Counted from the first letter of the stretch, positions 4,166-62,387 are shown. The stretch: 64,000 bases of DNA from Candidatus Magasanikiibacteriota bacterium (GCA_041674805.1 JBAYVA010000001.1:390612-454611), one strand, 5' to 3'. Notes: generated by a model not told the origin, from the sequence alone. Numbers and translations: made by a program.

Positions 4166-5125
4166 TTAAAAGACAATTTCTTGCACTTCAGTCTCCAGAT
4201 TTATCTTAAATTTATTATACACTTTTTCTTTTACTTCATCAATAAGATTTTTGACATCTTCAGCAGTAGCCCCACCCAAATTCACAATAAAATTGGCATG
4301 TTTTTCACTAACTTGAGCCTTGCCTATCTGAAGTCCTTTGCACCCAGCGTTATCTACCAACCATCCAGCAGATATTACACCTTTATCCAAAAATTCTTGT
4401 GGAATATCCTGGCTTTTGGCTTTTGGCTTTTGGCTTTTGACTACTACATTTTTGAAAATACAACCTGAAGAAGCAAAACCTTGTGGCTGTGTAGAATTTC
4501 TATATTGAATATTTTCAAGAGCCTTCTTCATCAAGTCCTTACTTTCTTCTGTACTCTTTTCTAGTTTCAACCAAACTCGCAAAATTACGTCATTATTAAG
4601 TTTGAAACTACTTTCACGATAAGCAAATCCACATTCTTCATTTGTCAATTCCAAAATTTCACCTTGACGATAGACTTCTACCCTTTCGATATTACCTTTC
4701 ATGTCACCTCCCATAGCACCAGCATTACCACGCACAGCTCCACCGATTGTCCCAGGCACACCAATCCCCCATTCAAATCCAGTAAGCCCAAGTCTGACAC
4801 TTTCACGAGCTACAGCTACAGTGATACAGCCAGCATCTACTTGCAAAATATCATTTTCTAATTGTTTTATTTCTGAACTAGCTACTTTTATCACCACTGC
4901 GTCTAATTCCTTATCAGTACAAAGCACATTACTTCCACCACCAAGAATAACATATTCCACATTTTCTTCACGCAAAAAATTCAAAACTTCTACAAGTTTA
5001 GAGTTATTATCAATTGTGATGAAATATTTAGCAGGACCACCAAGCTTGAAAGTAGTATGCTTGGACATTGGCTCGTTTAATTTTACTTTGCCAAATTTTT
5101 TGAGAGTTGTGTAGATTGTATCCAT
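4166..5125 (-). CDS. murB: UDP-N-acetylenolpyruvoylglucosamine reductase MurB
   Basis: 319 aa; FAD-binding N-terminal domain (TFKLGGPAKYFI...ILGGGSNVL) and MurB C-terminal domain (GFASSGCIFKN...AGWLVDNAGCKGLQIGKAQVSEKHANFIVN). Carries an internal (GGCTTTT)x4 tract at 4411-4439. Confidence 0.85.
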   Translation of the reverse strand: MDTIYTTLKKFGKVKLNEPMSKHTTFKLGGPAKYFITIDNNSKLVEVLNFLREENVEYVILGGGSNVLCTDKELDAVVIKVASSEIKQLENDILQVDAGCITVAVARESVRLGLTGFEWGIGVPGTIGGAVRGNAGAMGGDMKGNIERVEVYRQGEILELTNEECGFAYRESSFKLNNDVILRVWLKLEKSTEESKDLMKKALENIQYRNSTQPQGFASSGCIFKNVVVKSQKPKAKSQDIPQEFLDKGVISAGWLVDNAGCKGLQIGKAQVSEKHANFIVNLGGATAEDVKNLIDEVKEKVYNKFKINLETEVQEIVF

Positions 5126-6609: not shown

Positions 6610-8571
6610 ATGCAAAAATTACTAAACAAAAATATTATCTACGTCACCCGTGACATCGAACGTGCCACTGGTTTTGACTTGTCTAATCCTAACTATTATA
6701 TTATCTCAAATAGTAGCACATTTGCCAAGCAGATAGCCAAAGACAAAAACAACATTTTGCTAATTGAAGCTGAAAAACAAATAGATACTTGGGAACTTTT
6801 GGAAAAATCTGAAAGCAAAAATTTTATAAACAAAATTATTGATCCCCAAATATTGGTTTTCAAACCAACTACACAAATAGAAAAAATTTGTGCTGAAAAT
6901 AATTGGAAACTATTAAACCCTAGTGCTACTTTGGCAAACAAAGTAGAACAAAAAATTTCTAGTGTAAATTGGTTAGATGAAGACAGTAAATATTTTCCTG
7001 ATGCCAAAATAAATACTTGTGAAAATATTGAATTCAAAAATGAAAAGTTTATTTTACAATATAACCAATCTCACACTGGCAGTGGCACAATGCTGATTGA
7101 ATCAAAAAAACAATTAGATGAAATAAAAAATAAATTTCCTAAACGTGATTGCAAAACCAGCAGATTTGTTGAAGGTATTTTGCTTACCAACAACAATGTT
7201 GTCACAGACAAAGAAACAATGCTTGGTAATATAAATTATCAAATCACAGGACTTGAACCTTTTACCAAAAACAAATTTGCCACGATTGGCAATGATTGGG
7301 GTCTAGCACACAAATTATTAAATGAAAATTTGTTAAAACAATACCAAGAAATTGTAGAAGCCATTGGCAAAAGATTGAGAACAGAAAATTGGCGTGGACT
7401 TTTTGGAGTAGATATTATTTGGGAAACAAAAACCAACAAATTATATTTGATAGAAATCAATGCTCGCCAACCAGCTAGTACAACTTTTGAATCACAATTG
7501 CAAATGCAAAATAAAAAATCAGAAAATGACATCACGACATTTGAAGCTCATATACTAGCCTTAATCGGTGAAAGTTTGAAAAATAAAAAATTGATTGCAA
7601 TTACTGATGGTGCCCAAATAATTTTACGCAAATCACAAGAAAATATTGATACTGAAAATATAAAATCAAAATTGGAAAAAGAAAATTTCAATGTTATCAA
7701 ATACGACAATGACAAAGAAAATTCAGACTTACTTAGAATCCAAAGTAATTCTTCAATTATGAAAGAACACGAAAAATTTAACGAAAACGGCACAAAAATT
7801 GTAAGAGGAATGAAGAATGAGGAAAGAGGAATGGTTTCGAAAATGATTGAACATTATTTAAATCTAAAAGTTGGAAATACGACAGTAACCTGCCCTTACT
7901 TCAATAATCGAAGATCACAAATCCGTGGTGCTCTCGCTGTCCTCATCGGCAAAGGTAGTCCTGAAAGTATTGAAGAAGAACTACAAATAATTTCTCTCAA
8001 AGAAAAAATTGACTTGAACAACTTGCCAGCTGAAAAAATAAAAGAATTTTTGGTAAATAATAATCTTGGGGTTGACTGCTCTGGTTTCGTTTATCACATT
8101 CTAGATGCTTTAGTGCAAGATAAAAAAAATAAAAAACTAAAACAAATTATTCACTTTCCTCTCGCCAAAAGTGTGGTAAGAAAAATGATTGCCAAATTAC
8201 GTCCAGCTGAAAATTGTGGTGTCACGACTCTGGCTCACGAAATTAATAGTAAAAAAATAAATTTGAAAGAAGTGGAAGCCAATGATTTCATTATTTTTCT
8301 TGGCAGTGGACCAAAACAAGATTACAATCATATCATGTTTGTCGAAAGTGTCACTAACAAAACTATAAACTATATTCATGCGTACAAGTGGCCAAGCGAT
8401 GGACAATACAACCATGGTGTCAGACGTGGCCAAATTGAAATCATTGACGAAAACAAAAATATTCTCGAACAAAAGTGGCTTGAACAAGAAAAAACAGCTG
8501 AAAACAATTGGACTTGGTTGCAAGCCAAAAGTGCGAATGAAATATTTGTAGGAAGACTGAAAAACATTTAA
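6610..8571 (+). CDS. ATP-grasp ligase fused to a C-terminal NlpC/P60 (CHAP-like) cysteine peptidase/amidase domain
   Basis: 653 aa. N-terminal ~300 aa: ATP-grasp hallmarks (QSHTGSGTMLIES..., RGLFGVDIIWETKTNKLYLIEINARQPAS with the E-x-N catalytic loop). C-terminal ~170 aa: LGVDCSGFVYHIL ... NHIMFVESV ... YIHAY = Cys-His-His(polar) order of NlpC/P60 papain-like peptidases. Confidence 0.6.
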   Translation: MQKLLNKNIIYVTRDIERATGFDLSNPNYYIISNSSTFAKQIAKDKNNILLIEAEKQIDTWELLEKSESKNFINKIIDPQILVFKPTTQIEKICAENNWKLLNPSATLANKVEQKISSVNWLDEDSKYFPDAKINTCENIEFKNEKFILQYNQSHTGSGTMLIESKKQLDEIKNKFPKRDCKTSRFVEGILLTNNNVVTDKETMLGNINYQITGLEPFTKNKFATIGNDWGLAHKLLNENLLKQYQEIVEAIGKRLRTENWRGLFGVDIIWETKTNKLYLIEINARQPASTTFESQLQMQNKKSENDITTFEAHILALIGESLKNKKLIAITDGAQIILRKSQENIDTENIKSKLEKENFNVIKYDNDKENSDLLRIQSNSSIMKEHEKFNENGTKIVRGMKNEERGMVSKMIEHYLNLKVGNTTVTCPYFNNRRSQIRGALAVLIGKGSPESIEEELQIISLKEKIDLNNLPAEKIKEFLVNNNLGVDCSGFVYHILDALVQDKKNKKLKQIIHFPLAKSVVRKMIAKLRPAENCGVTTLAHEINSKKINLKEVEANDFIIFLGSGPKQDYNHIMFVESVTNKTINYIHAYKWPSDGQYNHGVRRGQIEIIDENKNILEQKWLEQEKTAENNWTWLQAKSANEIFVGRLKNI

Positions 8572-8599: not shown

Positions 8600-11500
8600 T
8601 TGGTATTATACACACAATATTTAATGCAATCTCTTATGCTAGAAATACCACGTTATTCTCCTTTTGACACTCCCAAAAGTAATGATGAGCTATATATAGA
8701 AATAGAAAATATTCTAAATAATCTAGAAGCAACTCTGGCTATTTTTGAATTGGAACAAGACAAAACCAAAGCCAGACAAGTAGGAATTTTAATTTACGAA
8801 CTAAAAAATCAACAAACTTTAATCAATGCCGAAAATCACAAAAAAGTTGGAAAATTGACTAAGCGAGAAAAAATAGAAAATTTACTTTCACAAGCCAGAG
8901 AGATTTTGCAAGGCAATGAATCATCCCTGTCAAGATTTGATCTAGAAAGAGAAAGTGAAATATCGCACATTCCCCTACCACCCGAAGAACTAGAAGCTAA
9001 ATATTTTAGCAAAGAAGATATTGCCGTTTCAAATGCTCTACTTGCTTTCAACATCACTGAACTTTTTTCAGAAGAAGAATTTGAAACACGAATTATTATT
9101 GATTCGAAACAAACTGGCAAAAATGACAATCACAAAATTCAAGAAGCGGTAGAACTAGTCACAGATTTTTTGATTGATAATCAGACCCTTAATTATTTTT
9201 GTGAAAATGCTGAATTTGCTACCACTCAAACAGCAATCAACATGCCACCAGATTTACTTTGGATAAAAGAAAAGAATCCCGCAGTTTGGCAAGCTATCAA
9301 TACTTTAGTCAAAAGTAAAAAAGGTCCAGAATTTTTGAGACTACTCGCTGGTCAACCGACCCACAATACAGCAGTAGAAGAAACTGATCAATATGATCTC
9401 ATGGCAAAAGAGTCTCTAGATGCTTCTCCCAATATTTTGAGTCTAGCCATAAATATATCAAGACAAAGATTGAAAAGTAGTGCAAGACAAGATTTGAGTG
9501 AAGCTGAAAAAAATGTTTTGGTGAATCTTTATGGTGCAGATTTTCTAAAAGACGCTGAAGAAGAAAGAGCCCGAGATATTATTTTTACACAATTACTTGC
9601 TCAGATTTTGAATGAAGATAAAAATGAAAAAAATAATGAGTCAATAATTCAACTTATTGATATGTTAGAATGGAGAGATATACAAAAAATGTTAAAAAAT
9701 AATGATTTGAAAAATTTTGAAAGTATTCTAAAACGTATAGCAGAATACCTACCAAATATGACAGACGAACAAGTGAAAATGGTGTTAGAAAAAATGAATA
9801 CTATCACAAAAGAAGCATTAGCTGAACCTGATAAAATACAAAAAAGAAAAGATGACGCACAAAAAAGAAAGGAAAAATTAGAACAAGACCTAGAAGAAGC
9901 ACAAAAAAATGGTGATAAAAAAATTCTAATGTTTTTAACATTAGGATTCTTTGGTTCAAGAGAGAGACGAATACCAGCAACTACAGAAAAAATTGAAGAT
10001 GTAGGAATAAAATTTTTAGAAGAAAGAAAAAATTATCAAACATCTCTAAAATTGTTATTCCTTCTATTAAAGCACAACGGGAATATTGCCAAAGAATTAA
10101 CAAAAAAAGAAGATTGGGAAAAAAGAAACAAAGAATTCGCAGATTTTTGTATCCAAATATTATATCTTTACTCTAAATTACAAAAATATCCTTCATATCG
10201 TGAAGATACCAAAGATGGTAATATAAACAATTTTGATGGTTTTGTAACAAGTTATATAAAAGTAACTACTGAATCTAAATTACCTACAGATAAAGAATTA
10301 AATTTAAATGGAGCTTCACTTGTTGGTGCAGATTTCAGAAAAGCAGACTTATCCAAAATAAATTTGGAAGGTGCTGATGTTACAAATGCTAATTTTGAAG
10401 GTGCAGATTTTAGCAAGATGACTAACAAACAAATAGAAGGAGCAAAGTTTAATAGAGAAGATGATAATATTCCTAAGTGGATCAAATATGGTTTAGATGA
10501 AGAAGGAAAGTTTTCAAAACAAAAACTACAAGAAACTATTAGAGAGAAATCTAAAACAGAAACTATAGACTTACAAGATGCTAAACTGATGGGACTAGAT
10601 TTATCAAATTTAAATTTATCAAATGCTAATTTTAGAAACTCAAATTTAAGTAGAGTAATATTTACAAATACAATTTTGATGGGTGCTGACTTTAGAGGTG
10701 CTCATATAGAAAGTTTACAATTAGCAAACACAAATCTAGAAGGTGCCAAATTTGATAAAGAAACCATTAACCCATTTAAAAAAACAAAACTAGCCAACGA
10801 ATCTAACTATAGACCAGAAAGTGTACCGAAATGGATCCAGCAGGCATTAGATACAGAAGGAAAATTTTCAAAAAAAATATTAGCTGATAATATCAAAAAA
10901 GATAAAAAGGGAGAAATAAAATTAAACAATGCAGATCTATCAGGATTATCATTGAATGGCGTAGATTTTTCTGGAAGAGAAATCACTGGTACAAAATTTA
11001 TCGGTACAAATCTAGAAGAATCCAAATGGAATAATTGTATATTAACTAATGTTGATTTTAGTGATGCAAACTTATACGAGGCTGATTTCAGAAGCACAAG
11101 CTTCAAAAATGTTAATCTTGAAGGTGCAAGATTTGAAACAATAAAAATAAAAGATTCAAATAATATTCCACCTTGGATACGATATGGTTTGGATAATCCA
11201 GGACGTTCAGGAAAATATTCCAAAAAAGACTTAATAGAATATATAAAAAGACATAGCACTCTAAATCTGAGAAATGCTGACCTGCCAGGGATTGATTTAA
11301 GTAAATTTGAATTAAATGGTGCATTATTCAGCGGTGCAAATTTAGAAGGAGCAATTTTTACTAATTGTTTATTGAAAAAAACAGAATTTGCATCTGCACA
11401 ATTAGAAAATGCTAGCTTCAGAGGTTCAATTCTAGAAGAATCCGACTTTGCCAATGCAAATTTACGTGGAGCAAATTTTAGTGGTGCTGACTTAAAAGAT

Positions 11501-11659
11501 GTAAAAAACTTAGATGGAGCCTATACCCCCGTACGCGTTGGTATTCAAAGAGAAACTGAATATTTTAATTCAAATTTAGTTGGTGCAAACTTCTCAAATG
11601 CAAAAAATATACCACCACACATCCAAGAACGATTAGACGAAAACGGTATATACCACTAA
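8600..11659 (+). CDS. large modular pentapeptide-repeat protein (1019 aa)
   Basis: C-terminal ~480 aa are dense pentapeptide repeats (ASLVGADFRKADLSKINLEGADVTNANFEGADFSKM...). They are organised in three super-modules that each begin with IP(K/P)WI(K/Q/R)YGLD..GKFSKK.L....I. N-terminal ~560 aa are helical with no recognised domain. Confidence 0.75.
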   Translation: MVLYTQYLMQSLMLEIPRYSPFDTPKSNDELYIEIENILNNLEATLAIFELEQDKTKARQVGILIYELKNQQTLINAENHKKVGKLTKREKIENLLSQAREILQGNESSLSRFDLERESEISHIPLPPEELEAKYFSKEDIAVSNALLAFNITELFSEEEFETRIIIDSKQTGKNDNHKIQEAVELVTDFLIDNQTLNYFCENAEFATTQTAINMPPDLLWIKEKNPAVWQAINTLVKSKKGPEFLRLLAGQPTHNTAVEETDQYDLMAKESLDASPNILSLAINISRQRLKSSARQDLSEAEKNVLVNLYGADFLKDAEEERARDIIFTQLLAQILNEDKNEKNNESIIQLIDMLEWRDIQKMLKNNDLKNFESILKRIAEYLPNMTDEQVKMVLEKMNTITKEALAEPDKIQKRKDDAQKRKEKLEQDLEEAQKNGDKKILMFLTLGFFGSRERRIPATTEKIEDVGIKFLEERKNYQTSLKLLFLLLKHNGNIAKELTKKEDWEKRNKEFADFCIQILYLYSKLQKYPSYREDTKDGNINNFDGFVTSYIKVTTESKLPTDKELNLNGASLVGADFRKADLSKINLEGADVTNANFEGADFSKMTNKQIEGAKFNREDDNIPKWIKYGLDEEGKFSKQKLQETIREKSKTETIDLQDAKLMGLDLSNLNLSNANFRNSNLSRVIFTNTILMGADFRGAHIESLQLANTNLEGAKFDKETINPFKKTKLANESNYRPESVPKWIQQALDTEGKFSKKILADNIKKDKKGEIKLNNADLSGLSLNGVDFSGREITGTKFIGTNLEESKWNNCILTNVDFSDANLYEADFRSTSFKNVNLEGARFETIKIKDSNNIPPWIRYGLDNPGRSGKYSKKDLIEYIKRHSTLNLRNADLPGIDLSKFELNGALFSGANLEGAIFTNCLLKKTEFASAQLENASFRGSILEESDFANANLRGANFSGADLKDVKNLDGAYTPVRVGIQRETEYFNSNLVGANFSNAKNIPPHIQERLDENGIYH

Positions 11660-11778: not shown

Positions 11779-11825
11779 AAGATCCCTCGTCGTATTCTCG
11801 ACTCAGGATGACGAATACCCTTATG
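11779..11825 (+). promoter_or_regulatory. mraY 5' leader: GATCCC - short CG hairpin - CTCAGGATGA ahead of the start
   Basis: aaaGATCCCtcgtcgtattctcgactcAGGATGAcgaataccctt ATG. Same architecture as the murB and GT2 leaders (see findings). Confidence 0.35.
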
Positions 11826-12953
11826 CTAATACCTTTAGAATCACTAAATCTACTCAGACAGGCCATTTTCTTTGGTCTGGTTTCTTGTGTTTTAGCTTTT
11901 CTTTGGGCTCCACTTTTAACCAAATTAATGTACAAATACAAGCTGACTAGATGTCCGGAATATGATGCTACTCTAGCCATGGGAGCAAGAAAAAGCAAAA
12001 TAGGTGTGCCAGTCATGGGAGGTCTTCTCGTCATTGTGACTGTTGCTGTCATCACAATTGCTTTCAACTGGGAAAGAAAATTCACTTGGGTACCAATTGG
12101 CGTCATGCTTCTCGCTGCCCTACTTGGTGGTATTGATGACGTCATGAATATCTACGGACACAAAAGACGCAGTCGCAAACTCAAACAAATTTTGACACTT
12201 ATCAAAGTCCACAAAGATTGGAAAATGCGTGTCTGGTATGCTCTCACTTTACCTTGGTCAATCTTCAAACGTACTTCTACTTTTCTTTCACGTCATCCTG
12301 GCAAAGGTATTCACGTTCATGAAAAATTATTATTGCAATTCTTGGCTGGAACCATTACCGCTTGGTGGATTTATTTCAAACTTGGTGAAAGCTGGCGCGA
12401 AATCCACATTCCTTTTGATGGCTTCATCAATATTGGTTGGTGGATCATTCCTCTGATTATCTTCTTCGTCATGTTTACTGCCAATGCGGTCAATGTCGCC
12501 GATGGTATGGATGGACTTGCAGGAGGATCTCTGATTATCACTTTTGCTGTCCTCACTATTCTCAGTTGGTTGGCAGGTTTCAAAGAAATGGCTTTTCTAA
12601 ACGCCACCACTGTTGGTGCGCTACTTACTTATACTTATTTCAATATCAAACCAGCTCGTTTCCAGATGGGCGATGTTGGCTCACTCGGGCTAGGGTCTTT
12701 GCTGGCTATCAATACCATAGTTCTCAATCAAATGTTACTTTTGCCTTTATTTGGTTTTATTTTTTATGTAGAAATTTTAAGTGTTGTCATCCAAATTTTT
12801 GGTCGCCAACTCTTGGGCAGAAGAATTTTCAAGATGGCACCAATACATTATCACTTCGAAATGCGTGGCTGGAATGAAGAAAAGACTGTGATGCGTTTCT
12901 GGCTTATTCATGCGGCGTTTGTGTTGCTTGGACTTTGGATATCACTTTATTAA
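11808..12953 (+). CDS. mraY: phospho-N-acetylmuramoyl-pentapeptide transferase MraY
   Basis: NAVNVADGMDGLAGG, PARFQMGDVGSLGLGSLLA, APIHYHFE and about 10 TM helices. The start may be the ATG at 11823 (MLIPLES...) rather than 11808. Local GC is higher than in neighbouring genes. Confidence 0.9.
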   Translation: MTNTLMLIPLESLNLLRQAIFFGLVSCVLAFLWAPLLTKLMYKYKLTRCPEYDATLAMGARKSKIGVPVMGGLLVIVTVAVITIAFNWERKFTWVPIGVMLLAALLGGIDDVMNIYGHKRRSRKLKQILTLIKVHKDWKMRVWYALTLPWSIFKRTSTFLSRHPGKGIHVHEKLLLQFLAGTITAWWIYFKLGESWREIHIPFDGFINIGWWIIPLIIFFVMFTANAVNVADGMDGLAGGSLIITFAVLTILSWLAGFKEMAFLNATTVGALLTYTYFNIKPARFQMGDVGSLGLGSLLAINTIVLNQMLLLPLFGFIFYVEILSVVIQIFGRQLLGRRIFKMAPIHYHFEMRGWNEEKTVMRFWLIHAAFVLLGLWISLY

Positions 12954-12993: not shown

Positions 12994-13293
12994 ATGAAAA
13001 TAAAAAAATCTTTTTTCAATATTTTTATTATATTATCAATTGTTATTTTTGTTTTTATTGGATACGAAATGATTAGAGTTAAAAATAGTGATCATAATGT
13101 GTTTCAAAGATGCCGATATAGATTTTTTTATGAACATTGGCAATGTATATCAGAGAAATTTAAAGAAAAAAATCATTGCAATATAATACAAAATAAAAAT
13201 TTTTGTTCAATAAACCCTGGTTGCTCTTGGCTATCTTGTTCTGCTTATGGTTACAGTGTATGTGATAAAAAAGGCACTCCAATACCCTGTTAA
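12994..13293 (+). CDS. small secreted/membrane-anchored cysteine-rich protein (~99 aa, 8 Cys)
   Basis: MKIKKSFFNIFIILSIVIFVFIGYEMI (signal anchor), then RCRY..QCIS..HCNI..FCSI..GCSW..SCSA..VCDK..IPC. Start chosen at the internal Met because the track ORF (12910) overlaps the mraY 3' end. Confidence 0.45.
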   Translation: MKIKKSFFNIFIILSIVIFVFIGYEMIRVKNSDHNVFQRCRYRFFYEHWQCISEKFKEKNHCNIIQNKNFCSINPGCSWLSCSAYGYSVCDKKGTPIPC

Positions 13294-13305
13294 TAAATCT
13301 TAAAT

Positions 13306-13971
13306 ATGAACAAGTATTTAAAATGGAACGAACAAACAATCCAAGATTTTTCTCCCGAAAACATCAATAGTCTTTACAACCAAGGCTATGTTTTTACTAG
13401 AGTGGAAAAAGGTATGATGAACCAAACCAGAAGTCTAAGAATTGATTTGTCTAAATTTGAATTGTCATCTGAAAATAGAAGAGTCTTGCGCAAAGCAGAA
13501 AATTTAAAACTTGAAATAAAAGATTTACCGACGTCAGATTATCATTGGACTCTTGGCAAATTGGCCAAAGATTTTTATGATACCAAATTTGGCGATGGAG
13601 TATTTTCAGCCAACAAAGTAAAAGAGATCCTAACAACACAACAAAATTTCAACAAACTTTTTGTTTACAAAGTTGCAGAAAAAAAAATTGGTTACACTAT
13701 TTGTTTTGAATCTGCAGAAATGTTGCATTATAGCTATCCATTCTATAACCTAGAACCTAACACCCAAAACCCAATACCTAGTCTTGGCATGTCGATGATG
13801 CTGAGTGCAATTGTCTACGCACAAGAAAATAACAAAAAATATATTTATCTTGGTTCAGCTCAACGTCCGACAGATATTTATAAATTGCAATTCAAAGGAT
13901 TAGAGTGGTTTGATGGTGAGAAATGGAGTGAAGATTTGGAGGAGTTGAAAAGTATTTTGAAAGCAAAATAA
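13306..13971 (+). CDS. Ate1/Bpt-family (arginyl/leucyl-tRNA--protein transferase-like, GNAT fold) homologue lacking the CxxC zinc-binding cysteines
   Basis: NQGYVFTRVEKGMMNQTRSLRIDLSKFELSSENRRVLRK matches the ATE_N signature region (…GWRRSGKY.YKP.MNQTCCPQYTIR…F.PSKS.+KVLKK) with Cys replaced. 221 aa, about Bpt size. FemX-like is an alternative given its position between mraY and the Mur ligase. Confidence 0.45.
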   Translation: MNKYLKWNEQTIQDFSPENINSLYNQGYVFTRVEKGMMNQTRSLRIDLSKFELSSENRRVLRKAENLKLEIKDLPTSDYHWTLGKLAKDFYDTKFGDGVFSANKVKEILTTQQNFNKLFVYKVAEKKIGYTICFESAEMLHYSYPFYNLEPNTQNPIPSLGMSMMLSAIVYAQENNKKYIYLGSAQRPTDIYKLQFKGLEWFDGEKWSEDLEELKSILKAK

Positions 13972-13995: not shown

Positions 13996-14742
13996 ATGAA
14001 TGAAGAAAACACAACTACTAATAAAACATTCAGAATATATAATAGCGTAATAATATTTGATATTCTTTGGTTGTCAACAACATTAATAATTACACTGTTT
14101 TTATTTTCCTCAACATTTAATATAACAAGTATTTTTTTAGGTATTTTTTCTTTAGCCTTTACTATATTCATGATTATAAAAATAATAAAAGATGCCTCAT
14201 ATAAAATAATTTTAGATAATAATATATTAAAAGAATACAATTATTCTGCACCTACTTTAAGAAGTATAGAAATAAAAGATATAACACATATTTCTCAAGT
14301 AGAGTACTCTGTATTAGAAGAAATAAAACAAGATAAAAACAATTCACCTTTTATACAAATAATCAATCAAATATTATCAAAAATTTTTACATTATTACTT
14401 AAAAAGTCTACAGAGCATACAGACATGCCTATGTTTGTACTTCAAGGTAATTTCAAAATCTCAAGATTTCCATCAGTTCCTGTTAATATAAAATTAATAC
14501 AAAGACTCATTGAATTGAATCCATCTATTATAGTAGACAAAAAATTAAGAAGGTGGTTACCAAAAAAACTTCAAAAGCAATTAAACATGCACCCTACAAA
14601 ACTAGAATATACATTTGAAATTATTGGAAAAATACTAATATCCATACTAATTGTCTTAATAATATTATGGGCAATTCCACTAACTTTTTTTTTACTAGAT
14701 AAAATTGGAATTTTAAATACTATACAAAATTTGATAAAATAG
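13996..14742 (+). CDS. hypothetical integral membrane protein (very AT-rich)
   Basis: 248 aa, N- and C-terminal TM helices; no recognised family. Confidence 0.4.
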   Translation: MNEENTTTNKTFRIYNSVIIFDILWLSTTLIITLFLFSSTFNITSIFLGIFSLAFTIFMIIKIIKDASYKIILDNNILKEYNYSAPTLRSIEIKDITHISQVEYSVLEEIKQDKNNSPFIQIINQILSKIFTLLLKKSTEHTDMPMFVLQGNFKISRFPSVPVNIKLIQRLIELNPSIIVDKKLRRWLPKKLQKQLNMHPTKLEYTFEIIGKILISILIVLIILWAIPLTFFLLDKIGILNTIQNLIK

Positions 14743-14776: not shown

Positions 14777-16180
14777 ATGCAAAAACAAAAACATATACAT
14801 TTCATCGGCATCTGCGGAGTAGCAATGAGTGCCCTCGCAATCGCTTTCCACAAACGCGGATATACAGTTACTGGAAGCGATAAAGGCTTCTATCCTCCAG
14901 TTTCAACTTATCTAAAAGATGCAGGTGTACCTTATTATCCAGGTTGGCACGTTGAAAAAATGACGAAAAACGGCGATCCAGATTTGATAATCGTCGGCAA
15001 TGTTGCAGGCTCAAACAATCCCGAATGGATGTACACCCAAGAAAAAAAACTAAACTACAAATCTTATCCAGAAGCTATTGCTGAATTTTTTGTCAAAGAA
15101 AATTCTATTGTCTGCGCGGGAACATTTGGTAAGACTACGACTACTTCCCTACTCGCTTGGATTTTGCAAGAAAATGATTTTGATCCAAGCTATATGTTTG
15201 GTGGTATTAGTCTAAACGATATGCCAGCAGCCAAATTGACTGACTCAAAATATTCTGTGCTTGAAGGTGATGAATACAAAAGTGCTCGTTGGGATGATGG
15301 TGCCAAATTTTTTCACTACTCACCTACTCACCTACTTTTGACTTCTGTAGTTTGGGATCATGCTGATGTCTATCCAACAGAACAATCTTATTTCACAGCT
15401 TTTGAAAAACTACTCAGCAACTTACCAGAATCTGGACTGCTCGTAACTAGCGAAAGAGTAAAAAAAGAAATGTTAGATTTTGCTAAATGCAAAATTATCA
15501 CTTACGGCAAAGATGCAAAAAATGATTATGTTTACCAAAATGTGACAGTAAACAAAACAGAAATAAAATTTGAAATAAAATATCAAGACCAAATTTTCCA
15601 AATCAATTCTCCTTTGCTTGGTGAATATTTGGTTGATAATATGACAGCTACTTTTGCCATGGCACACCAACTTGGTCTAGCACCTGACAAAATTATTCAA
15701 ACTACAAATACTTACAAAAATGTCAAAAGACGCTTGGAAAAAAGACTGGCTCTAGATATTACAGTCTTAGACGACATAGCTCATTCTCCACAAAAAGCTT
15801 CTTCTGTTTTGCAAACTCTAAAAAATATTTATTATGATGGCAAAGTAATAGCCATCTTTGAACCAAACTCAGGCAACAGACAAAAAGAAGCAATACCAGG
15901 CTATGATAACAAATTTTCTGATGCTGATTTAGTCATTATTCCCAAACTGACAGTAATCAAACAAACACCTGAAGAAGAAAAAGCTATTGAAGGAGAAGAA
16001 CTAACTGAAATAATTCGTAAGACACAAAAAAATGTAAAATATATTGATAATGATAATGAACTTGTTGATTATGTTGTCAAAATTGCTAAACCAAATGATG
16101 TGATTGCTTTCTTAGGTAGTCATGGCTTTCGTAATATGATTGAAGCAGTAGTAAAAGGCTTGAAAGGCTTAAAAAGCTAG
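14777..16180 (+). CDS. Mur ligase, MurC/Mpl family (sequence is closest to the Mpl type; by context the UDP-MurNAc--L-Ala ligase)
   Basis: IHFIGICGVAMSALAIAFHKRGYTVTGSDKGFYPPVST..., GTFGKTTTTSLLAWIL, VLEGDEYKSARWDDGAKFFHY.P..L.L..V.WDHADVY. The DEY..A.(F/W)D and YPP.ST motifs are Mpl-like rather than canonical MurC. Confidence 0.75.
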   Translation: MQKQKHIHFIGICGVAMSALAIAFHKRGYTVTGSDKGFYPPVSTYLKDAGVPYYPGWHVEKMTKNGDPDLIIVGNVAGSNNPEWMYTQEKKLNYKSYPEAIAEFFVKENSIVCAGTFGKTTTTSLLAWILQENDFDPSYMFGGISLNDMPAAKLTDSKYSVLEGDEYKSARWDDGAKFFHYSPTHLLLTSVVWDHADVYPTEQSYFTAFEKLLSNLPESGLLVTSERVKKEMLDFAKCKIITYGKDAKNDYVYQNVTVNKTEIKFEIKYQDQIFQINSPLLGEYLVDNMTATFAMAHQLGLAPDKIIQTTNTYKNVKRRLEKRLALDITVLDDIAHSPQKASSVLQTLKNIYYDGKVIAIFEPNSGNRQKEAIPGYDNKFSDADLVIIPKLTVIKQTPEEEKAIEGEELTEIIRKTQKNVKYIDNDNELVDYVVKIAKPNDVIAFLGSHGFRNMIEAVVKGLKGLKS

Positions 16181-16266: not shown

Positions 16267-16821
16267 ATGAAAATTCCAAAAAACGCCAAAAAAGTTTTCA
16301 CCGGAGTTCTCTTCGATGTTTATCAATGGCCTCAAAAAATGTTTGATGGTACTTTTAAGACTTTTGAAAAACTATCAAGAAAACATAGTATACAAGTACT
16401 AGCAGTTACTACAGACAAAAAAATTATTGTTTTGAAAGAACAACATCCAGATATCAAACCTTTTTATGGTGTGATTGGTGGAGGACAAGAAGGCAAAGAA
16501 ACTCCACTACAAACTGCCAAAAGAGAACTACAAGAAGAAACAGGCTATACTGCAAAAAAATGGGAATTGATTGATAAGGAAACTCCTTCTAGCAAATTGG
16601 ACTGGACACTATACACATATCTAGCAAAAGATGCTGAAAAAACTCATGAACAAAAACTAGATTCAGGTGAAAAAGTAGAAGTCATGAAAGTAAGTTTTAC
16701 TGAGTTCATGAAATATGCTACTAATCACAATTTCATGTCTACTGGTCTTAGCTTTTATCTTCTCAAATTGAACTATCACAAAAAACTTGGGGAATTCAAG
16801 AAAAAACTTTTAAATAAATAA
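16267..16821 (+). CDS. NUDIX hydrolase
   Basis: Nudix box GGGQEGKETPLQTAKRELQEETGY. Confidence 0.75.
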   Translation: MKIPKNAKKVFTGVLFDVYQWPQKMFDGTFKTFEKLSRKHSIQVLAVTTDKKIIVLKEQHPDIKPFYGVIGGGQEGKETPLQTAKRELQEETGYTAKKWELIDKETPSSKLDWTLYTYLAKDAEKTHEQKLDSGEKVEVMKVSFTEFMKYATNHNFMSTGLSFYLLKLNYHKKLGEFKKKLLNK

Positions 16822-17215: not shown

Positions 17216-18115
17216 ATGAAAACCCCCCAACCAACATTCACCGAGCTAAACAAAACACTCGGTATCGACGTCTACCTCAAACGTGAAGACGAACACAAGT
17301 ATTCTTCACACAAAGGTCGTTCTATTCCACTCATGGTCAAAAAGTATAACAAAGAAGAAGACATCACAAACTTTGTAATTTCTTCTTCCGGCAATGCAGC
17401 CATCGCCGCTATACACACTATCCAAGCTCACAACAAAAATAATGATAAAAATTTAACATTAAAAATTTTTGTTGGCAAAAATATTGATAAACAAAAATTG
17501 AAAGTTTTGCAAGCAATTATCGAAGACAAAAATATTTCTCTTGAGCAAGTAGAAAGACCAAAACAAACAGCTTTTGCTCTCGACAAAGAAAATAAAGCCA
17601 AAAATTTACGACAATCCACCGATGATAATGCCCTTACAGGTTACTATGAACTAGCCGAGGAATTAAACAATATCCCAAACTTGCAAGCAATACTTGTACC
17701 AACATCTTCTGGCACTACAGCCCAAGGACTTGGTATGGCTTTTGACACAATACCCGCTTCCAAATTTGGTGGTCAACAACATCCCCAAATTCATATTGTA
17801 CAAACAACTAGTTGTCACCCGATTGCTGAAGAATTTGATAAAAAGTTTGAAAACACAGAGACATCCCTAGCAAGTGCTATCGTCGACAACATTGCTCACC
17901 GCAAAGAAAAAGTCATAGAACAAATAAAAAAATCCAGCGGATCTGGCTGGATAGTGACTGACGAAGATTTGAAAAATGTAGTGAATATGCTAGAAGAAAA
18001 CTGCAAAATAAAAATTTCTTATAATTCTGCTTTGTCAGTTGCCGGGCTTATCAAAGCAATGAATAACGGCTGGAAATTTGAGGGAGCGGTGGTGTGTTTG
18101 ATTACAGGAATGTAA
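17216..18115 (+). CDS. PLP-dependent enzyme, tryptophan-synthase-beta (fold type II) superfamily; ACC deaminase / D-cysteine desulfhydrase-like
   Basis: LKREDEHKYSSHKGRS (PLP-lysine region, cf. FGGNKTRKL), ISSSGNAAIAAI, glycine-rich PTSSGTTAQGLGMAF. Confidence 0.5.
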   Translation: MKTPQPTFTELNKTLGIDVYLKREDEHKYSSHKGRSIPLMVKKYNKEEDITNFVISSSGNAAIAAIHTIQAHNKNNDKNLTLKIFVGKNIDKQKLKVLQAIIEDKNISLEQVERPKQTAFALDKENKAKNLRQSTDDNALTGYYELAEELNNIPNLQAILVPTSSGTTAQGLGMAFDTIPASKFGGQQHPQIHIVQTTSCHPIAEEFDKKFENTETSLASAIVDNIAHRKEKVIEQIKKSSGSGWIVTDEDLKNVVNMLEENCKIKISYNSALSVAGLIKAMNNGWKFEGAVVCLITGM

Positions 18116-18174
18116 ACTAGAATAACACAAATATCTGTTCACATCTGAAAATCCTTATTATCTGTATATCAGTA

Positions 18175-18870
18175 TCATTTCCTCAAAATCGTCACCACAT
18201 TATTCCCCTTTTTTACATCACTCACTTTCCCTTTCTTAGAATAATAATTTTCTTCTACTTCAAAACCAGCTTCGCTGCAAATCTTATCTAAATACTCAGG
18301 AGTAAAACCATAATAATATCTCTCACCCAATACTTCACCTTGAGGATTCATCCAAGGTACAACGAATTCACCTTCACTCTCCTGCCACTTACCTTTTTCC
18401 ACAGTCTTTTGAGCTGAATCTGAATAAAGATTCCAATTAGTCAGAAGTACTCTACCAGCAGGCTTTAGAATTCTGAACATTTCAGACAAAGCCTGATGTC
18501 TAGTCTCTTCATCTGGCAAATGATGCAAAGTTGCAACACAAAAAACTAAATCAAAACTAGCATCATCAAATGGTAATTTGGTCATTTCTGCCTGAATATA
18601 TTTATTGTTCGGAAAGTCCTTCTTAGCCTCAGCTAATTGTCCCTCACTTTGGTCCAAACCTATGTAATCTATAGAGTCTTGAAATTTTGCGAAAATCTGA
18701 TATAATCTGCCAGTACCACAACCAAGATCTAAGATCTTCAAGTTTGGCTTGATATACTTTTCAAAAGGTCTCAAATCATCCCAAATATATTGTCTAGTAC
18801 TAGCAAAAAGAGGTGCAATAATATCATAAACTTCCCTATTTTGCTCAATTATTTTTTTTATTCGTGTCAT
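18175..18870 (-). CDS. Trm9/ALKBH8-type tRNA (mcm5U34) methyltransferase-like class I SAM methyltransferase
   Basis: EVYDIIAPLFASTRQYIW, ILDLGCGTGRL (motif I), ATLHHLPDEETRHQALSEMFRILKPAGRVLLTNWN, GEFVVPWM and RYYYGF align with Trm9 regions (VYNEIAPHFSQTRYKPW / DVGCGNGKY / AVVHHWSTRERR...GGQALIYCWA / QDVFVPWV / RYYHLY). Confidence 0.6.
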   Translation of the reverse strand: MTRIKKIIEQNREVYDIIAPLFASTRQYIWDDLRPFEKYIKPNLKILDLGCGTGRLYQIFAKFQDSIDYIGLDQSEGQLAEAKKDFPNNKYIQAEMTKLPFDDASFDLVFCVATLHHLPDEETRHQALSEMFRILKPAGRVLLTNWNLYSDSAQKTVEKGKWQESEGEFVVPWMNPQGEVLGERYYYGFTPEYLDKICSEAGFEVEENYYSKKGKVSDVKKGNNVVTILRK

Positions 18871-18880
18871 ATTTTTTAAA

Positions 18881-20566
18881 ATGGAAAAAACTTTAGAAGA
18901 AATTTTATTAGAAATAATATCTTACCATCCCAAAACTAAGGATGATTTTAATGATGCTCGCCGTCGAATTTGTGGTAAATTGAAAACAGTCCAACCTTCC
19001 AACATGAAGCTTTTTACAGCTTACCAGAATTTGTTAAAAAAGAAAAGTATTACCATTGACAAAAACTTAGAATTACTTCTACGCAAAGCCGATATTCGCT
19101 CAATGTCTGGTGTTGCTATTATCACTTCTCTCATCAAACCTTACACTTGCCCTGGACAATGTATCTACTGCCCGACTGAAGTAAAAATGCCAAAAAGTTA
19201 CATTGCTACTGAACCAGCGGCTGCCCGTGCGCTTGCTCTAGCTTTTAGTCCTTACAGACAAATGCAAATGCGCCTAGACATGCTCGAAAAAACTGGTCAT
19301 CCAACTGACAAAATAGAATATATTTTGAAAGGCGGAACTTGGAATGCTTATCCTCTTCGTTACCAATATTGGTTTATTTTAGAATCTTTCAAAGCTTGCA
19401 ATGATCTGACAAGGAAAACACCAACCAAAGCTACGTTGGAAAAAGACTGGAAAGAAAAAACTCTGGAAGATTTACAAAATGCTTTGAAAATTGAACAAGA
19501 GTACAATGACAAAAAAGCTAAACACAAAATCATTGGCCTGACTCTCGAAACTCGTCCCGACGCTATTTCCCCAAAAACAATTTGGCATATGCGAGAACAA
19601 GGTTGTACTCGTATTGAACTTGGTCTCCAAGCTCCAGATGACAAAATTCTTGAACTAGTAAAACGTGGCCACACTGTCGAACAATTTCGCCAAGCTATTT
19701 TACTTTTGCGCCAAGCTGGTTTCAAAGTAGATTTGCATTTCATGCCAGATTTGCCAGGTACGACCGCCAAACACGATGTGGAGATGTACGCCAGTTTGTT
19801 TACTGACGAAGGTCTAAAACCTGACATGGTGAAAATTTATCCGTGTACTGTTATCAAAAGTGCCGAGCTATATGGCTGGTTTGAATCTGGTAAATACAAA
19901 CCTTATGCTAGCCAAGATTTGTTCAACGCTATACTTGAAATGAAAAAGTTAACTCCTTATTACTGCCGTATTTCTCGTCTTATTCGTGACATTCCTAGCA
20001 ACGAAATCGAAGGTGGAAATGCTATTACCAATCTTCGTGAAGCTCTAGAAAAAGAATTACACAAGCAAGGTGACTATTGCAAATGTTTACGTTGTCGCGA
20101 AGTCGGACATTCCGAAAAAATTCACAAAATAAAAGCAGACAAATTAATACCCCAACTTTTTGTCGAAGAATTTCAAACTCGTGGTGGACGAGAATTTTTC
20201 TTGAGTTTGGAAGATGAAGAACGTCGTATAGTCTTTGCTTTCTTGCGTCTTCGTCTACCAGAATATAATGACCAAATAAAAAAATCTGAAATACTTGAAA
20301 AATACCTTGGCCTTGGTGATTTGAAAAAATTAGCTTACGTCCGCGAACTTCATACTTACGGACAACTCGTCAACGTCGGTGACAAAAACAAGTCAGCCTC
20401 ACAACACAAAGGAATGGGAACAAAACTAGTCAAAGAAGCTGACAAAATTGCTAGAGAAAATGGTTACACAAAAATTGCTGTAATTTCTGGTGTTGGTGTA
20501 CGATCTTATTATCGAAAATTTGGCTATAAAAAAATTGGCACATATATGGCCAAAAATCTAAAATAG
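18881..20566 (+). CDS. Elp3-type radical-SAM + GNAT tRNA uridine(34) carboxymethyl/acetyl-transferase homologue
   Basis: 561 aa; radical-SAM cluster CPGQCIYCP, and a C-terminal GNAT domain HKGMGTKLVKEADKIARENGYTKIAVISGVGVRSYYRKFGYKKIGTYMAK that closely matches the Elp3 C-terminus (QHQG.G..L.EEAERIA....KIAVISGVGTR.YYRK.GY...GPYM.K). Confidence 0.8.
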   Translation: MEKTLEEILLEIISYHPKTKDDFNDARRRICGKLKTVQPSNMKLFTAYQNLLKKKSITIDKNLELLLRKADIRSMSGVAIITSLIKPYTCPGQCIYCPTEVKMPKSYIATEPAAARALALAFSPYRQMQMRLDMLEKTGHPTDKIEYILKGGTWNAYPLRYQYWFILESFKACNDLTRKTPTKATLEKDWKEKTLEDLQNALKIEQEYNDKKAKHKIIGLTLETRPDAISPKTIWHMREQGCTRIELGLQAPDDKILELVKRGHTVEQFRQAILLLRQAGFKVDLHFMPDLPGTTAKHDVEMYASLFTDEGLKPDMVKIYPCTVIKSAELYGWFESGKYKPYASQDLFNAILEMKKLTPYYCRISRLIRDIPSNEIEGGNAITNLREALEKELHKQGDYCKCLRCREVGHSEKIHKIKADKLIPQLFVEEFQTRGGREFFLSLEDEERRIVFAFLRLRLPEYNDQIKKSEILEKYLGLGDLKKLAYVRELHTYGQLVNVGDKNKSASQHKGMGTKLVKEADKIARENGYTKIAVISGVGVRSYYRKFGYKKIGTYMAKNLK

Positions 20567-57489: not shown

Positions 57490-58593
57490 TTACTTGACCT
57501 CTTTAGGTAGATTTCTCATTCCACTTTTCTTTTTACCAAACCAAATAACTAATAATATCATTATAACAAAAAGCAAGATTAAAGCCAAAAATTTTTGACT
57601 ACTTTGCAAAAATAAAGCTGACAAACCAAACAACAAAGAAATTGCATAAAACAATAATACTGCTTGTTTTTGACTAAGTCCTGTATCCAACAAACGAAAA
57701 TGTAAATGTTCTCTATCTCCCAAATAAATAGGATGACCTTTTTTGAAACGAGCCCAAATAACTCTAGCTACATCCAAAATAGGTATAGCCATAACCAATA
57801 AAGTAATAGCAATTTTACTACCTGAAATAATAGCCAATGTACCAAGTAAAAAACCAGTCAATAAACTTCCTCCTTCACCCAAAAATATTTTGGCAGGAAA
57901 CCAATTCCAAACTAAAAAACCCAAAACCGCAGCTGCCAAAATAATAGACAAAAGAGCTACATCTGGCTGAAACCAATTCGTTTGTAAAGAAAAAAAGAAC
58001 AAAACACAAGCACCTATAAAAACTATTCCAGAAACCAAACCATCCAGCCCATCCAAGAATTTGGTAGTAAACATCATTCCCATAAGCCAAAAGAAAACTA
58101 AAACATCTGCCAAAACTACAAGTTTACCAAAATTACCAAAATTTATTTGCCAAAAATCTAAATGAATAACTCCACCAAACGGATTGGAAATAATATGTGG
58201 ACCAATACCCGAAAAAATAATAGTCATAGCAGCTAAAACTGGAAATAAAATTTGTATCTTTGGTTTTAAAACATATTTGTCATCCAAAATACCACCAACA
58301 ACCAGAAACAAAGATCCCAAAAATAATCCTAGCAAATTTCTAAATACAATATCATAATAAAAATTATCACCAAAAATCCAAGCCAAAAATACTGACAAGA
58401 AAAAACTAAAAAAAATAGCCAAACCACCACCTAAAGCAATCGGCCTTTTGTGAATTTTTCTTTTTTCTTTACTTACTTTATCAATAATACCAAATTTTCT
58501 CATAAACATAGCAACCAAAAAAGTCACTATTACAGAAACTACGAAGGTAAAACTAAAATAAAACAAATATATCATCATAATTTTAATAATCAA
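57490..58593 (-). CDS. polyprenyl-phosphate N-acetylhexosamine-1-phosphate transferase (WecA/TagO, MraY-like GT4 family)
   Basis: KFLDGLDGLVSG (DGxDGL), multiple TM helices, ...IYLGDREHLHFRLL. Confidence 0.7.
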   Translation of the reverse strand: MIIKIMMIYLFYFSFTFVVSVIVTFLVAMFMRKFGIIDKVSKEKRKIHKRPIALGGGLAIFFSFFLSVFLAWIFGDNFYYDIVFRNLLGLFLGSLFLVVGGILDDKYVLKPKIQILFPVLAAMTIIFSGIGPHIISNPFGGVIHLDFWQINFGNFGKLVVLADVLVFFWLMGMMFTTKFLDGLDGLVSGIVFIGACVLFFFSLQTNWFQPDVALLSIILAAAVLGFLVWNWFPAKIFLGEGGSLLTGFLLGTLAIISGSKIAITLLVMAIPILDVARVIWARFKKGHPIYLGDREHLHFRLLDTGLSQKQAVLLFYAISLLFGLSALFLQSSQKFLALILLFVIMILLVIWFGKKKSGMRNLPKEVK

Positions 58594-58618
58594 TTTAATT
58601 TAGTATAACAAAATACAG

Positions 58619-59512: not shown

Positions 59513-59622
59513 AATCTATATTATTTAAATTTGACCTATTATAGCAAAATTTACAAAAAAATCAATACCCCAAATATAAAAAAACAATCCTCAAAAAAAT
59601 TGGATTGTCTTTTGTTTTTTTA

Positions 59623-62379: not shown

Positions 62380-62387
62380 AAGATTAT

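Follow-up and report, generated by a model that had tools for sequence, protein, structure and literature searches.

AteL, a distant relative of the Bpt and Ate1 aminoacyl-tRNA transferases, recurs with Mpl-type ligases in bacterial cell-wall gene clusters

The window analysed here is a 64,000-nucleotide stretch of the genome of a Candidatus Magasanikiibacteriota bacterium (GCA_041674805.1 JBAYVA010000001.1:390612-454611; G+C content ~31%), in which a gene lying between mraY and the gene for a Mur ligase encodes a 221-residue homologue of the aminoacyl-tRNA-dependent transferases Bpt and Ate1 that we call AteL. The names of homologues indicate a genome like those of Candidatus Magasanikbacteria, within the Patescibacteria (Candidate Phyla Radiation). 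The synthesis of peptidoglycan precursors is among the major targets of antibiotics, and its cytoplasmic steps are usually seen as fixed (MurA-F); the one role known to us for Bpt/Ate1-type enzymes is the tagging of protein N-termini for degradation. We find that AteL is a distant member of the Ate1/Bpt superfamily with a GNAT core, that it belongs to a distinct, unnamed clade, and that its gene recurs in division and cell wall (dcw) clusters of distantly related bacteria. The genes of interest in the window are as follows:

4166-5125, minus strand: murB, divergent from the block that runs from the ATP-grasp gene to the ligase gene (tblastn, 187 bits to Microgenomates MurB).
6610-8571, plus strand: cytoplasmic protein with an ATP-grasp domain fused to an NlpC/P60-like C-terminus (ATP-grasp_3, E=2e-9; weak CHAP match; motif GVDCSGFVYH).
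11808-12953, plus strand: mraY, phospho-N-acetylmuramoyl (MurNAc)-pentapeptide transferase (PF00953; TIGR00445, 177 bits).
12994-13293, plus strand: protein of 99 amino acids (aa) with a signal anchor and eight cysteines (read from the sequence; no family match).
13306-13971, plus strand: AteL, Bpt/Ate1-like aminoacyl-tRNA-transferase homologue lacking the Cys4 site, 221 aa (NCBIfam Bpt models, hhalign, AF2/Foldseek).
13996-14742, plus strand: membrane ORFan, 248 aa (no homologue in 86 related loci).
14777-16180, plus strand: MurC/Mpl-family ligase of the Mpl type, 467 aa (all three Mur ligase domains).
16267-16821, plus strand: NUDIX hydrolase (PF00293; weakly NudE-like), found downstream in many Magasanikbacteria loci.
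17216-18115, plus strand: fold-type II pyridoxal phosphate (PLP) enzyme (PALP, threonine-synthase-like; PF00291, 102.7 bits).

The gaps between the plus-strand genes from mraY through the NUDIX gene measure 12-86 bp, and one transcription unit is likely because no convincing plus-strand terminator was found in them. The original prediction, made from the sequence alone, had both the 99-aa and the AteL open reading frames (ORFs) at the coordinates given above and described the anchor and the eight cysteines of the former correctly. It also named the flanking genes correctly when it placed the pair between mraY and the Mur ligase, but it left out the 248-aa membrane ORF (13996-14742) that precedes the ligase.

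The kinship of AteL to Bpt was evident from profile comparisons. All seven NCBIfam Bpt 'arginyltransferase' models (PRK01305) matched AteL (E values of 1e-13 to 3e-5, 24-51 bits), although the best score (50.9 bits) is far under their cut-offs of 170-358 bits, and all distant clade members examined are as far from these models as AteL of the window. Pfam ATE_C (PF04377) matched at E=1.2e-3 (19.8 bits, under the gathering threshold of 25), a match that recurs at sub- or near-threshold level in 31 of 35 relatives, and Pfam ATE_N (PF04376) did not match AteL. When a profile of 54 AteL-family members was aligned by hhalign with genuine Bpt proteins of Pseudomonas/Stutzerimonas (retrieved with a bait sequence, only the returned database proteins being analysed), homology was assigned with 98.4% probability (E=1e-14) over 162 aligned columns, AteL residues 40-209 corresponding to Bpt residues 66-233, while conservation of the first ~65 residues of Bpt was undetectable in AteL. 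Searches of the PDB with the single AteL sequence and with narrow and broad profiles yielded weak generic GNAT matches, among them the ordinary acetyltransferases 3d8p (E=3e-4) and 8osp (E=2e-3) with family profiles, and Ate1 itself at E=3.9. As this direct similarity is so low, the link between AteL and Ate1 rests on the fold and on Bpt. An AlphaFold2 (AF2) model of AteL (pLDDT 80.3, pTM 0.81) showed a single core, the N-terminal ~40 residues being of low confidence, and in a Foldseek search of the PDB human and yeast ATE1 came out on top (E=1e-7, TMq 0.55-0.62, human 0.62), ahead of FemX (TMq 0.47, TMt 0.32-0.34), alanyl- and lysyl-phosphatidylglycerol synthases/MprF and Sba18/Sbb17 (TMq 0.43-0.50 for these next matches). 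All top fold matches are thus aminoacyl-tRNA-dependent GNAT transferases.

No unrelated family claimed AteL in Pfam, NCBIfam, PADLOC or PHROGs, and the profile of Aat (Leu_Phe_trans, PF03588) did not match it, so that the 'leucyl-tRNA--protein transferase' labels that JGI attaches to homologues are unsupported. Readings of the locus as a defence system or as phage-derived were likewise rejected, as PADLOC and PHROGs held no match for AteL, the eight-cysteine protein, the 248-aa ORF or the ATP-grasp protein.

The features that define this enzyme class have been mapped in the structure of K. lactis Ate1 (klAte1): a zinc site of four cysteines (C4), Arg80 in G(W/F)RRSG, which is essential for binding the acidic N-terminal residue, a donor side-chain pocket, and a catalytic Tyr303-Lys304 pair that is equivalent to Phe304-Lys305 of FemX and whose K304A variant is inactive (PMC9351520). 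We compared the C4 positions (klAte1 Cys23/26/95/96; Bpt Cys17/61/64/67) across the family. In a joint MAFFT alignment Bpt Cys61/64/67 have no Cys counterpart in any AteL clade, the CQNCNAC stretch of Bpt lying opposite GMMNQT or xFYLA; an alignment of 54 AteL-family members has no position with a conserved Cys, and the one cysteine of the window protein, C133, is not conserved. The GFRRSG motif of Bpt lies opposite GYVFTR in Magasanikbacteria and GFLPxx in the other clades, with hydrophobic residues replacing arginine. Both arginines thus appear to be lost, a conclusion held with moderate confidence because hhalign does not span this N-terminal stretch. By contrast with these losses, Y192-K193 is invariant in the 54 sequences and sits opposite Bpt Y216-K217 in the hhalign alignment. 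The family invariants further comprise G27, R45, R59, G161, Y181, G183 and W207, of which R45 and R59 lie opposite R71 and R85, both invariant in Bpt, and a nearly invariant Glu, E56, is specific to the family. The equivalents of the donor-pocket residues are bulkier than in Bpt (Ala168 to Tyr142, Ala186 to Met164), a weak hint that the donor residue may be small.

On the grounds of homology, fold neighbours and the catalytic pair, we infer that AteL uses aminoacyl-tRNA as donor; it resembles an aminoacyl-tRNA transferase, yet appears from its sequence not to be classifiable as Bpt, Ate1, Aat or FemX. The kinship with Ate1/Bpt seen in the original prediction accordingly stands. Its 'cysteine-less' holds for the four metal-binding cysteines and overlooks C133, and the 'ATE_N signature' that it read in the protein corresponds to no more than the last part of ATE_N (Bpt 66-90).

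At E<1e-3 we retrieved 1641 AteL homologues, far more than chance would give, and an exhaustive search of 1.84 billion representatives returned 485 clusters (50% identity) at this threshold and 243 at E<1e-10. The main groups are Magasanikbacteria (at least 56% identity among the top 120 matches; gene present in 387 GTDB species representatives), Microgenomates/Shapirobacteria (37-41% identity) and Bacteroidota/Cytophagales (~25-33% identity), the last including the cultured Emticicia oligotrophica DSM 17448 and Tunicatimonas pelagia. The family has additional groups, including one from Enterobacter/Citrobacter, where a Cys-less subgroup (P0213, P0399, P0400) lies on chromosomal contigs of Enterobacter quasiroggenkampii, Citrobacter cronae and C. 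farmeri; the enterobacterial member was found on no PLSDB plasmid. In one metagenomic protein (P0245, 809 aa) an AteL-family domain is fused to domains like those of phosphoenolpyruvate (PEP) synthase and pyruvate-phosphate dikinase, which suggests that AteL is coupled to an ATP-dependent activating enzyme in some lineage. Many GTDB loci (L014, L018, L020, L022 and L023 among them) are titled 'uncultured Gammaproteobacteria bacterium' and show synteny of the Magasanikbacteria type and 55-70% identical proteins; these titles, from binchicken and SRP co-assemblies, look like generic mislabels. In the source databases the members are called 'hypothetical', 'GNAT family N-acetyltransferase', 'arginine-tRNA-protein transferase domain protein' or 'leucyl-tRNA--protein transferase', and in the literature on ATE/Bpt-like genes in dcw clusters and on peptidoglycan of the Candidate Phyla Radiation (CPR) we found no description of this clade or of its context.

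We compared gene order in 170 loci, 86 of them from Magasanikbacteria and 39 of them long Bacteroidota loci. In Magasanikbacteria mraY lies upstream and the ligase gene downstream of ateL in every locus with enough flank, the mraY-ateL gap being at most 150 bp in 56 of 76 distinct loci and the ateL-ligase gap at most 150 bp in 43 of 77. Other elements conserved there are the divergent murB (divergent likewise in L001-L004), the ATP-grasp and NlpC/P60 genes, the NUDIX gene, the PLP enzyme gene, a methyltransferase gene and the gene for ELP3. The ATP-grasp and NlpC/P60 modules, which are upstream of mraY in most of these loci, are fused in the window and encoded by separate adjacent genes in L001/L003, a pairing that hints at a gamma-D-Glu peptide being processed or ligated inside the cell. 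The PLP enzyme (17216-18115), for which NCBIfam threonine synthase models gave weak matches, is encoded downstream in nearly all Magasanikbacteria loci and in many of them directly 3' of the ligase gene.

A different set of wall genes surrounds ateL in the two other lineages. The order in Microgenomates is mraZ, rsmH, ftsL-like, ftsI, murE, ateL, ligase, murB, murA, (ddl), murF-type, mraY. A gene for glycine-tRNA ligase (NF003211, 555 bits; L087:1-715, L088:267-1541) lies two to three genes upstream of mraZ in these loci, after recO; we considered it as a clue to the donor and judged it coincidental, probably an instance of the recO-glyS pairing, which is common. The commonest order in Cytophagales (11 of the 39 long loci) is ftsW, murG, ateL, ftsQ, ftsA, ftsZ, so that ateL takes the slot usual for murC, and in L101 it overlaps murG and ftsQ by 4 bp each. 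Elsewhere in Bacteroidota ateL lies two genes from murB or directly after the ligase gene, or (arrangement E; L092, L095) divergently adjoins a putative mreB-mreC-mreD-pbp2 operon, recognised by gene size and order, with the penicillin-binding protein alone matched by tblastn. By our own classification, ateL is linked to genes of the wall or of division in ~22 of the 39 long Bacteroidota loci, and arrangements C and D (L102-L106) have no wall genes near ateL. A set of loci with arrangement C (L125, L126, L128, L138, L158) places ateL beside genes for a TMEM164-related membrane acyltransferase (TIGR02206, 148 bits) and an NhaC-type antiporter. As a control, the canonical bpt neighbourhood consists of aat, bpt, infA, clpA and clpS; none of aat, clpS and clpA was found in the ateL loci examined. 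This difference bears out the expectation of a cell-wall context rather than an N-end-rule one, and gene order is conserved well past near relatives, in Magasanikbacteria, Microgenomates and Bacteroidota. Neither of the outcomes named in advance as refuting the original prediction, a confident match to an unrelated family or a lack of conserved gene order in relatives, came about. The suggestion that ateL occupies the slot of murD, ftsW or murG was loosely right, the invariant partner being the ligase.

This partner is of the Mpl type. The ligase of the window scores below the cut-offs of both curated NCBIfam models (murC, 262.8 bits, cut-off 335.1; mpl TIGR01081, 251.8 bits, cut-off 388.7), and by BLASTP against the E. 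coli enzymes it is closer to Mpl (205 bits, 29% identity) than to MurC (110 bits, 24%), as the original prediction had it. The ateL-adjacent ligases compared from all three lineages behave alike (Mpl 133-214 bits, MurC 83-110 bits). In a tblastn search of the 170 loci (~2 Mb of flanks) with E. coli MurC, Mpl, MurD, MurE, MurF and MraY, all 88 regions of the MurC/Mpl family, and that of the window, were matched best by Mpl, and no region was matched best by MurC or MurD. Features specific to Mpl are Tyr182 with an (S/T)AFFDKRSK loop, an SGP motif and residues of the C-domain, and the E. coli enzyme accepts tri-, tetra- and pentapeptides (PMC3060825). The ligases studied here have the Tyr and a loop of Mpl length with a diverged sequence (DEYKSARWDDGAK, versus DEYDCAFFDKRSK in E. 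coli Mpl), a loop absent from MurC. They carry S(Y/H/F)P for SGP, (G/S)S(H/G)G(F/L) for SNGGF (GSHGF), and E-P-x-S (EPNSGN for EPRSNT) or a loop of Mpl length rather than the Q-P-H-R of MurC, and they lack the His-Arg pair with which MurC engages L-Ala. Judged by these residues, the ateL-adjacent ligases would form a diverged Mpl-like subfamily that fits neither curated model.

Further links to murein peptides were found in some loci. Known enzymes of murein-peptide recycling are LdcA, L-Ala-D/L-Glu epimerase, cytoplasmic NlpC/P60 (YkfC) and Mpl, as in ldcA/ycjG/mpl of E. coli and ykfABCD of B. subtilis. In L134/L135 the ligase-ateL pair is preceded by a gene for an epimerase of the enolase superfamily, whose best matches are the N-acetyl-D-Glu racemase DgcA (227 bits) and L-Ala-D/L-Glu epimerase (171 bits). 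In the unrelated locus L142 genes for an LD-carboxypeptidase (Peptidase_S66C, 122 bits), an epimerase 34% identical to that of L134/L135, and a serine hydrolase of the beta-lactamase family are followed by ateL. The Microgenomates dcw cluster encodes MurA, MurB, MurE, the Mpl-type ligase, Ddl, a MurF-type enzyme and MraY; MurC and MurD are absent from this cluster, and murC and murD are absent from their usual slots in L097 as well. The Microgenomates MurE is of the meso-diaminopimelic acid (DAP) type (NF001126, 400 bits; cut-off 373). Aligned with their E. coli counterparts, the MurE and MurF proteins of CPR bacteria start to match no earlier than about residue 53-102, in most cases at 90 or beyond (MurE, L087:5739-7004, L088:5799-7004 and L089:5503-6885; MurF-type, L087:11350-12486 and L088:12433-13662; further MurE/MurF cases in L023, L029 and L039), and the Microgenomates ORFs measured have at most ~35 residues upstream of the aligned part. 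Most of the N-terminal UDP-binding domain 1 thus seems to be missing from the CPR enzymes, whereas MurE and MurF of Bacteroidota in the same data set are full length.

The slots on either side of ateL are variable. The eight-cysteine protein begins with a KIKK n-region and an ~18-residue hydrophobic anchor and contains exactly eight Cys; by tblastn it has a single close relative, in L008 (96%), and it matches no family in Pfam, NCBIfam, PADLOC or PHROGs. The mraY-ateL slot is empty in 56 of 76 loci, and in ~10 of the 76 it holds a different small ORF with an N-terminal transmembrane (TM) segment, 4-9 Cys and a loose C-x(8-12)-C-x5-C-x(W)-x2-C pattern. The protein is most likely a fast-evolving, membrane-anchored extracytoplasmic protein tolerated in the operon, and its proposed part in a conserved module does not hold. 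The 248-aa ORF, a multi-TM protein, has no homologue in the 86 related loci and no family in the same four databases; elsewhere the ateL-ligase gap contains a gene for a GNAT acetyltransferase or a flavin reductase, or nothing, and this gap is a hot spot for variable inserts.

Other parts of the window were recorded in passing. The genes at 17216-20566, namely those for the PLP enzyme, a class I methyltransferase (minus strand) and bacterial ELP3, a radical-SAM/GNAT tRNA-modification enzyme (TIGR01211, 522 bits), are kept downstream of the ligase gene across Magasanikbacteria. Between the ATP-grasp gene and mraY the window has a gene for a 1019-aa pentapeptide-repeat protein (8600-11659, plus strand), where relatives have one for a GT87-like membrane protein. 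A dcw head at 57490-63962 (minus strand) comprises rsmH, an FtsL-like gene, a 125-aa ORF and genes for a ClpA/B/C-type ATPase, a VanW-like protein and a WecA-like GT4 protein; ftsI and mur genes do not follow it.

In light of these observations, we favour the view that AteL is a cytoplasmic aminoacyl-tRNA-dependent transferase that probably acts on the peptide of a peptidoglycan precursor, in partnership with the Mpl-type ligase, and is not an N-degron enzyme. How it might do so is a more tentative matter. As a serious possibility, though one on which we would not yet rely, AteL would make or extend a Glu-containing murein peptide that the Mpl-type ligase loads onto UDP-MurNAc. AteL would keep the chemistry of its family, in which a free alpha-amino group attacks the aminoacyl ester of a charged tRNA and K193 would stabilise the intermediate, and would move a small residue, most plausibly L-Ala from Ala-tRNA, to the alpha-amine of glutamate. 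Either free Glu or, in a murein fragment such as gamma-D-Glu-DAP, the (D-)Glu at the N-terminus could serve as acceptor, and the product would be L-Ala-Glu(-X). Where the acceptor is L-Glu, an epimerase of the L-Ala-D/L-Glu type would invert the product (L-Ala-L-Glu to L-Ala-D-Glu). The Mpl-type ligase would then use ATP to load the peptide onto UDP-MurNAc, from which MraY would make lipid I. Such a route would amount to a salvage or bypass around MurC/MurD, useful to CPR bacteria that scavenge fragments of the host wall. It would retain the acceptor class of the family (the N-terminal alpha-amine of an acidic residue) and account for the ligase partnership, for the epimerase and LdcA neighbours, and for the lack of murC and murD in the Microgenomates cluster and in the L097 slots. 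The bypass would parallel that of MurD2/MurL, a precedent for alternative enzymology at the L-Ala/D-Glu step (PMC8788868).

Several points weigh against this proposal. The Mpl-type ligase may simply be the local MurC, which weakens the peptide-loading argument: because a murC(ts) mutant is rescued when E. coli mpl is overexpressed, Mpl then being able to take L-Ala (PMC3060825), an enzyme of the Mpl type could still use L-Ala. The absence of MurC and MurD is one from clusters, not from whole genomes, and the free-living Cytophagales very probably have the complete canonical pathway. Most Cytophagales loci have ateL in the dcw operon without an adjacent gene for an Mpl-type ligase or an epimerase; the epimerase and LdcA links concern a minority of loci, the epimerase link being confined to two lineages, and arrangement C is a context that the model does not explain. 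A Glu acceptor would moreover predict that the Arg for acidic N-termini be retained, and AteL appears to have lost it. Finally, the choice of donor amino acid is a guess: a dedicated tRNA gene was sought near the cluster, and none was found in the window or in 40 loci.

A bolder version, which we regard as a long shot, is that the stem peptide of these CPR bacteria is put together before it is joined to the nucleotide. AteL would make L-Ala-Glu from Ala-tRNA and glutamate, the short MurE and MurF would extend the free peptide, and the Mpl-type ligase would attach the completed peptide to UDP-MurNAc in one step. This idea fits the Microgenomates cluster, with its short MurE/MurF and its lack of MurC/MurD, and the acceptance of tri- to pentapeptides by E. 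coli Mpl. If true, it would make MurC and MurD dispensable (with an epimerase, glutamate racemase too) and would represent a convergent, tRNA-dependent path to UDP-MurNAc-pentapeptide.

Other explanations place AteL in different chemistry. The chief rival is the analogy with FemX drawn in the original prediction, by which AteL would transfer an aminoacyl-tRNA residue onto a side-chain amine (the epsilon-NH2 of Lys or Orn, or the free centre of DAP) of UDP-MurNAc-peptide or of lipid I/II and so yield a stem peptide that is branched or modified. Branch addition of this kind by FemX/FemAB is the one established use of tRNA in peptidoglycan synthesis (PMC9351520). FemX is among the top fold matches of AteL (TMq 0.47), the gene sits in mur/dcw clusters beside mraY, murE or murG, the lost Arg of the acidic pocket would fit a new, non-acidic acceptor, and the nearly invariant E56 could suit an acceptor that bears an amine. 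We nevertheless consider a branching role unlikely, and the analogy found no direct support: the FemAB profile PF02388 did not match AteL at E values up to 1, AteL has 221 residues compared with 332-337 in FemX chains, and its fold is matched better by ATE1. The most constant partner of AteL is a first-step, Mpl-type ligase rather than the enzymes that make a branch acceptor, and this pairing points to a loaded peptide. The Microgenomates MurE is of the meso-DAP type, Cytophagales have been reported to have directly cross-linked DAP walls, in which branches are unusual, and the links to a dipeptide epimerase and LdcA would go unexplained.

That AteL instead modifies protein N-termini, as a Bpt-like N-degron enzyme of altered specificity or as a modifier of a division or wall protein from the same operon, is an improbable reading, even though its nearest characterised relatives, Bpt and Ate1, are protein N-terminal transferases, a dcw location could reflect the regulation of a divisome protein, and the window encodes a ClpA/B/C-type AAA+ ATPase (59623-62379, 918 aa). 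No ClpS domain was found in the ORF upstream of this ATPase, ateL was never found with aat, clpS or clpA, every clade is missing the C4 site and, by alignment, the GFRRSG arginines, and the recurrent pairing with the Mpl-type ligase and murein-peptide enzymes would be left without a rationale. We likewise give little credence to a tRNA-independent N-acyltransferase that uses acyl-CoA on a wall precursor or on an unrelated small molecule. The NCBI name 'GNAT family N-acetyltransferase' and the weak profile matches to 3d8p and 8osp would agree with such an enzyme, but the significant homology is to Bpt, the top folds are all aminoacyl-tRNA-dependent, and the Tyr-Lys pair typical of aminoacyl-tRNA transferases is invariant. 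Hitch-hiking of a gene with an unrelated housekeeping role near mur genes of streamlined genomes is very improbable: CPR genomes are compact, with operons that are often mixed, and arrangements C and D of Bacteroidota have no wall genes nearby, but three deep lineages, whose flanking wall genes differ, show the association independently of one another, and it extends to the large genomes of free-living Cytophagales with their 4-bp overlaps with murG and ftsQ, and covers ~22 of the 39 long Bacteroidota loci.

Taken together, the presence of a Bpt/Ate1-type member in the dcw/mur operons of hundreds of species points to a new tRNA-dependent step in stem-peptide synthesis or salvage, or to a new wall modification. 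The novelty would lie in the recruitment of an aminoacyl-tRNA transferase of wall synthesis from within the Bpt/Ate1 lineage and in its coupling to an Mpl-type ligase. Such an enzyme could account for the way in which CPR episymbionts, whose biosynthesis is minimal, obtain or rebuild a peptide containing D-Glu. The finding also offers a functional handle on a large family now labelled hypothetical or GNAT or, wrongly, arginyl- or leucyl-tRNA-protein transferase. The cultured E. oligotrophica and T. pelagia, which have ateL between murG and ftsQ, make the question testable now.

Among known systems, bacterial Bpt (aspartate/glutamate leucyltransferase) is akin to AteL in size, in homology over ~165 residues, in R45/R71 and R59/R85, in a YxFY strand, in YLG and Y-K motifs and presumably in the chemistry of its aminoacyl-tRNA donor. 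It differs in its four metal-binding Cys, its GFRRSG motif, its less bulky donor pocket and its location with aat, clpA and clpS rather than with mur/fts genes. Eukaryotic Ate1 (PDB 8tzv, 7tif, 7wg1, 8e3s) is the best structural match and shares the GNAT core and the catalytic Tyr-Lys, although AteL is less than half its size, lacks the C4 zinc/Fe-S site and the variable C-terminal domain, has an unlike acceptor pocket and shows no significant sequence similarity to it. FemX, FemAB and MurM (PF02388) likewise combine a GNAT fold with an equivalent catalytic Lys and use aminoacyl-tRNA in precursor synthesis (PMC9351520). Their longer chains (332-337 residues in FemX) and weaker fold match set them apart, as does the pairing of AteL with an Mpl-type ligase. 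Murein-peptide recycling resembles the present system in a ligase of Mpl architecture, in LdcA and dipeptide-type epimerase neighbours (some Bacteroidota) and in an NlpC/P60-like domain (Magasanikbacteria), but here the Mpl-type ligase, with its diverged loop, is encoded in the core dcw cluster and is the only first-step ligase visible. We know of no tRNA-dependent enzyme in such recycling. MurD2/MurL also carry out non-canonical L-Ala/D-Glu steps, with incorporation of L-Glu followed by epimerisation, yet they are ATP-dependent, act on nucleotide-bound intermediates without tRNA and belong to unrelated protein families. Finally, the peptide synthases Sba18/Sbb17 and the MprF-type aminoacyl-phosphatidylglycerol synthases are fold neighbours that acylate small-molecule or lipid acceptors from aminoacyl-tRNA. 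Their likeness to AteL is at the level of the fold (TMq 0.43-0.50), and they occur in natural-product clusters or as fusions to membrane flippases, unlike AteL, which has no long hydrophobic stretch; with them, the aminoacyl-tRNA-dependent GNAT fold is seen not to be restricted to protein acceptors.

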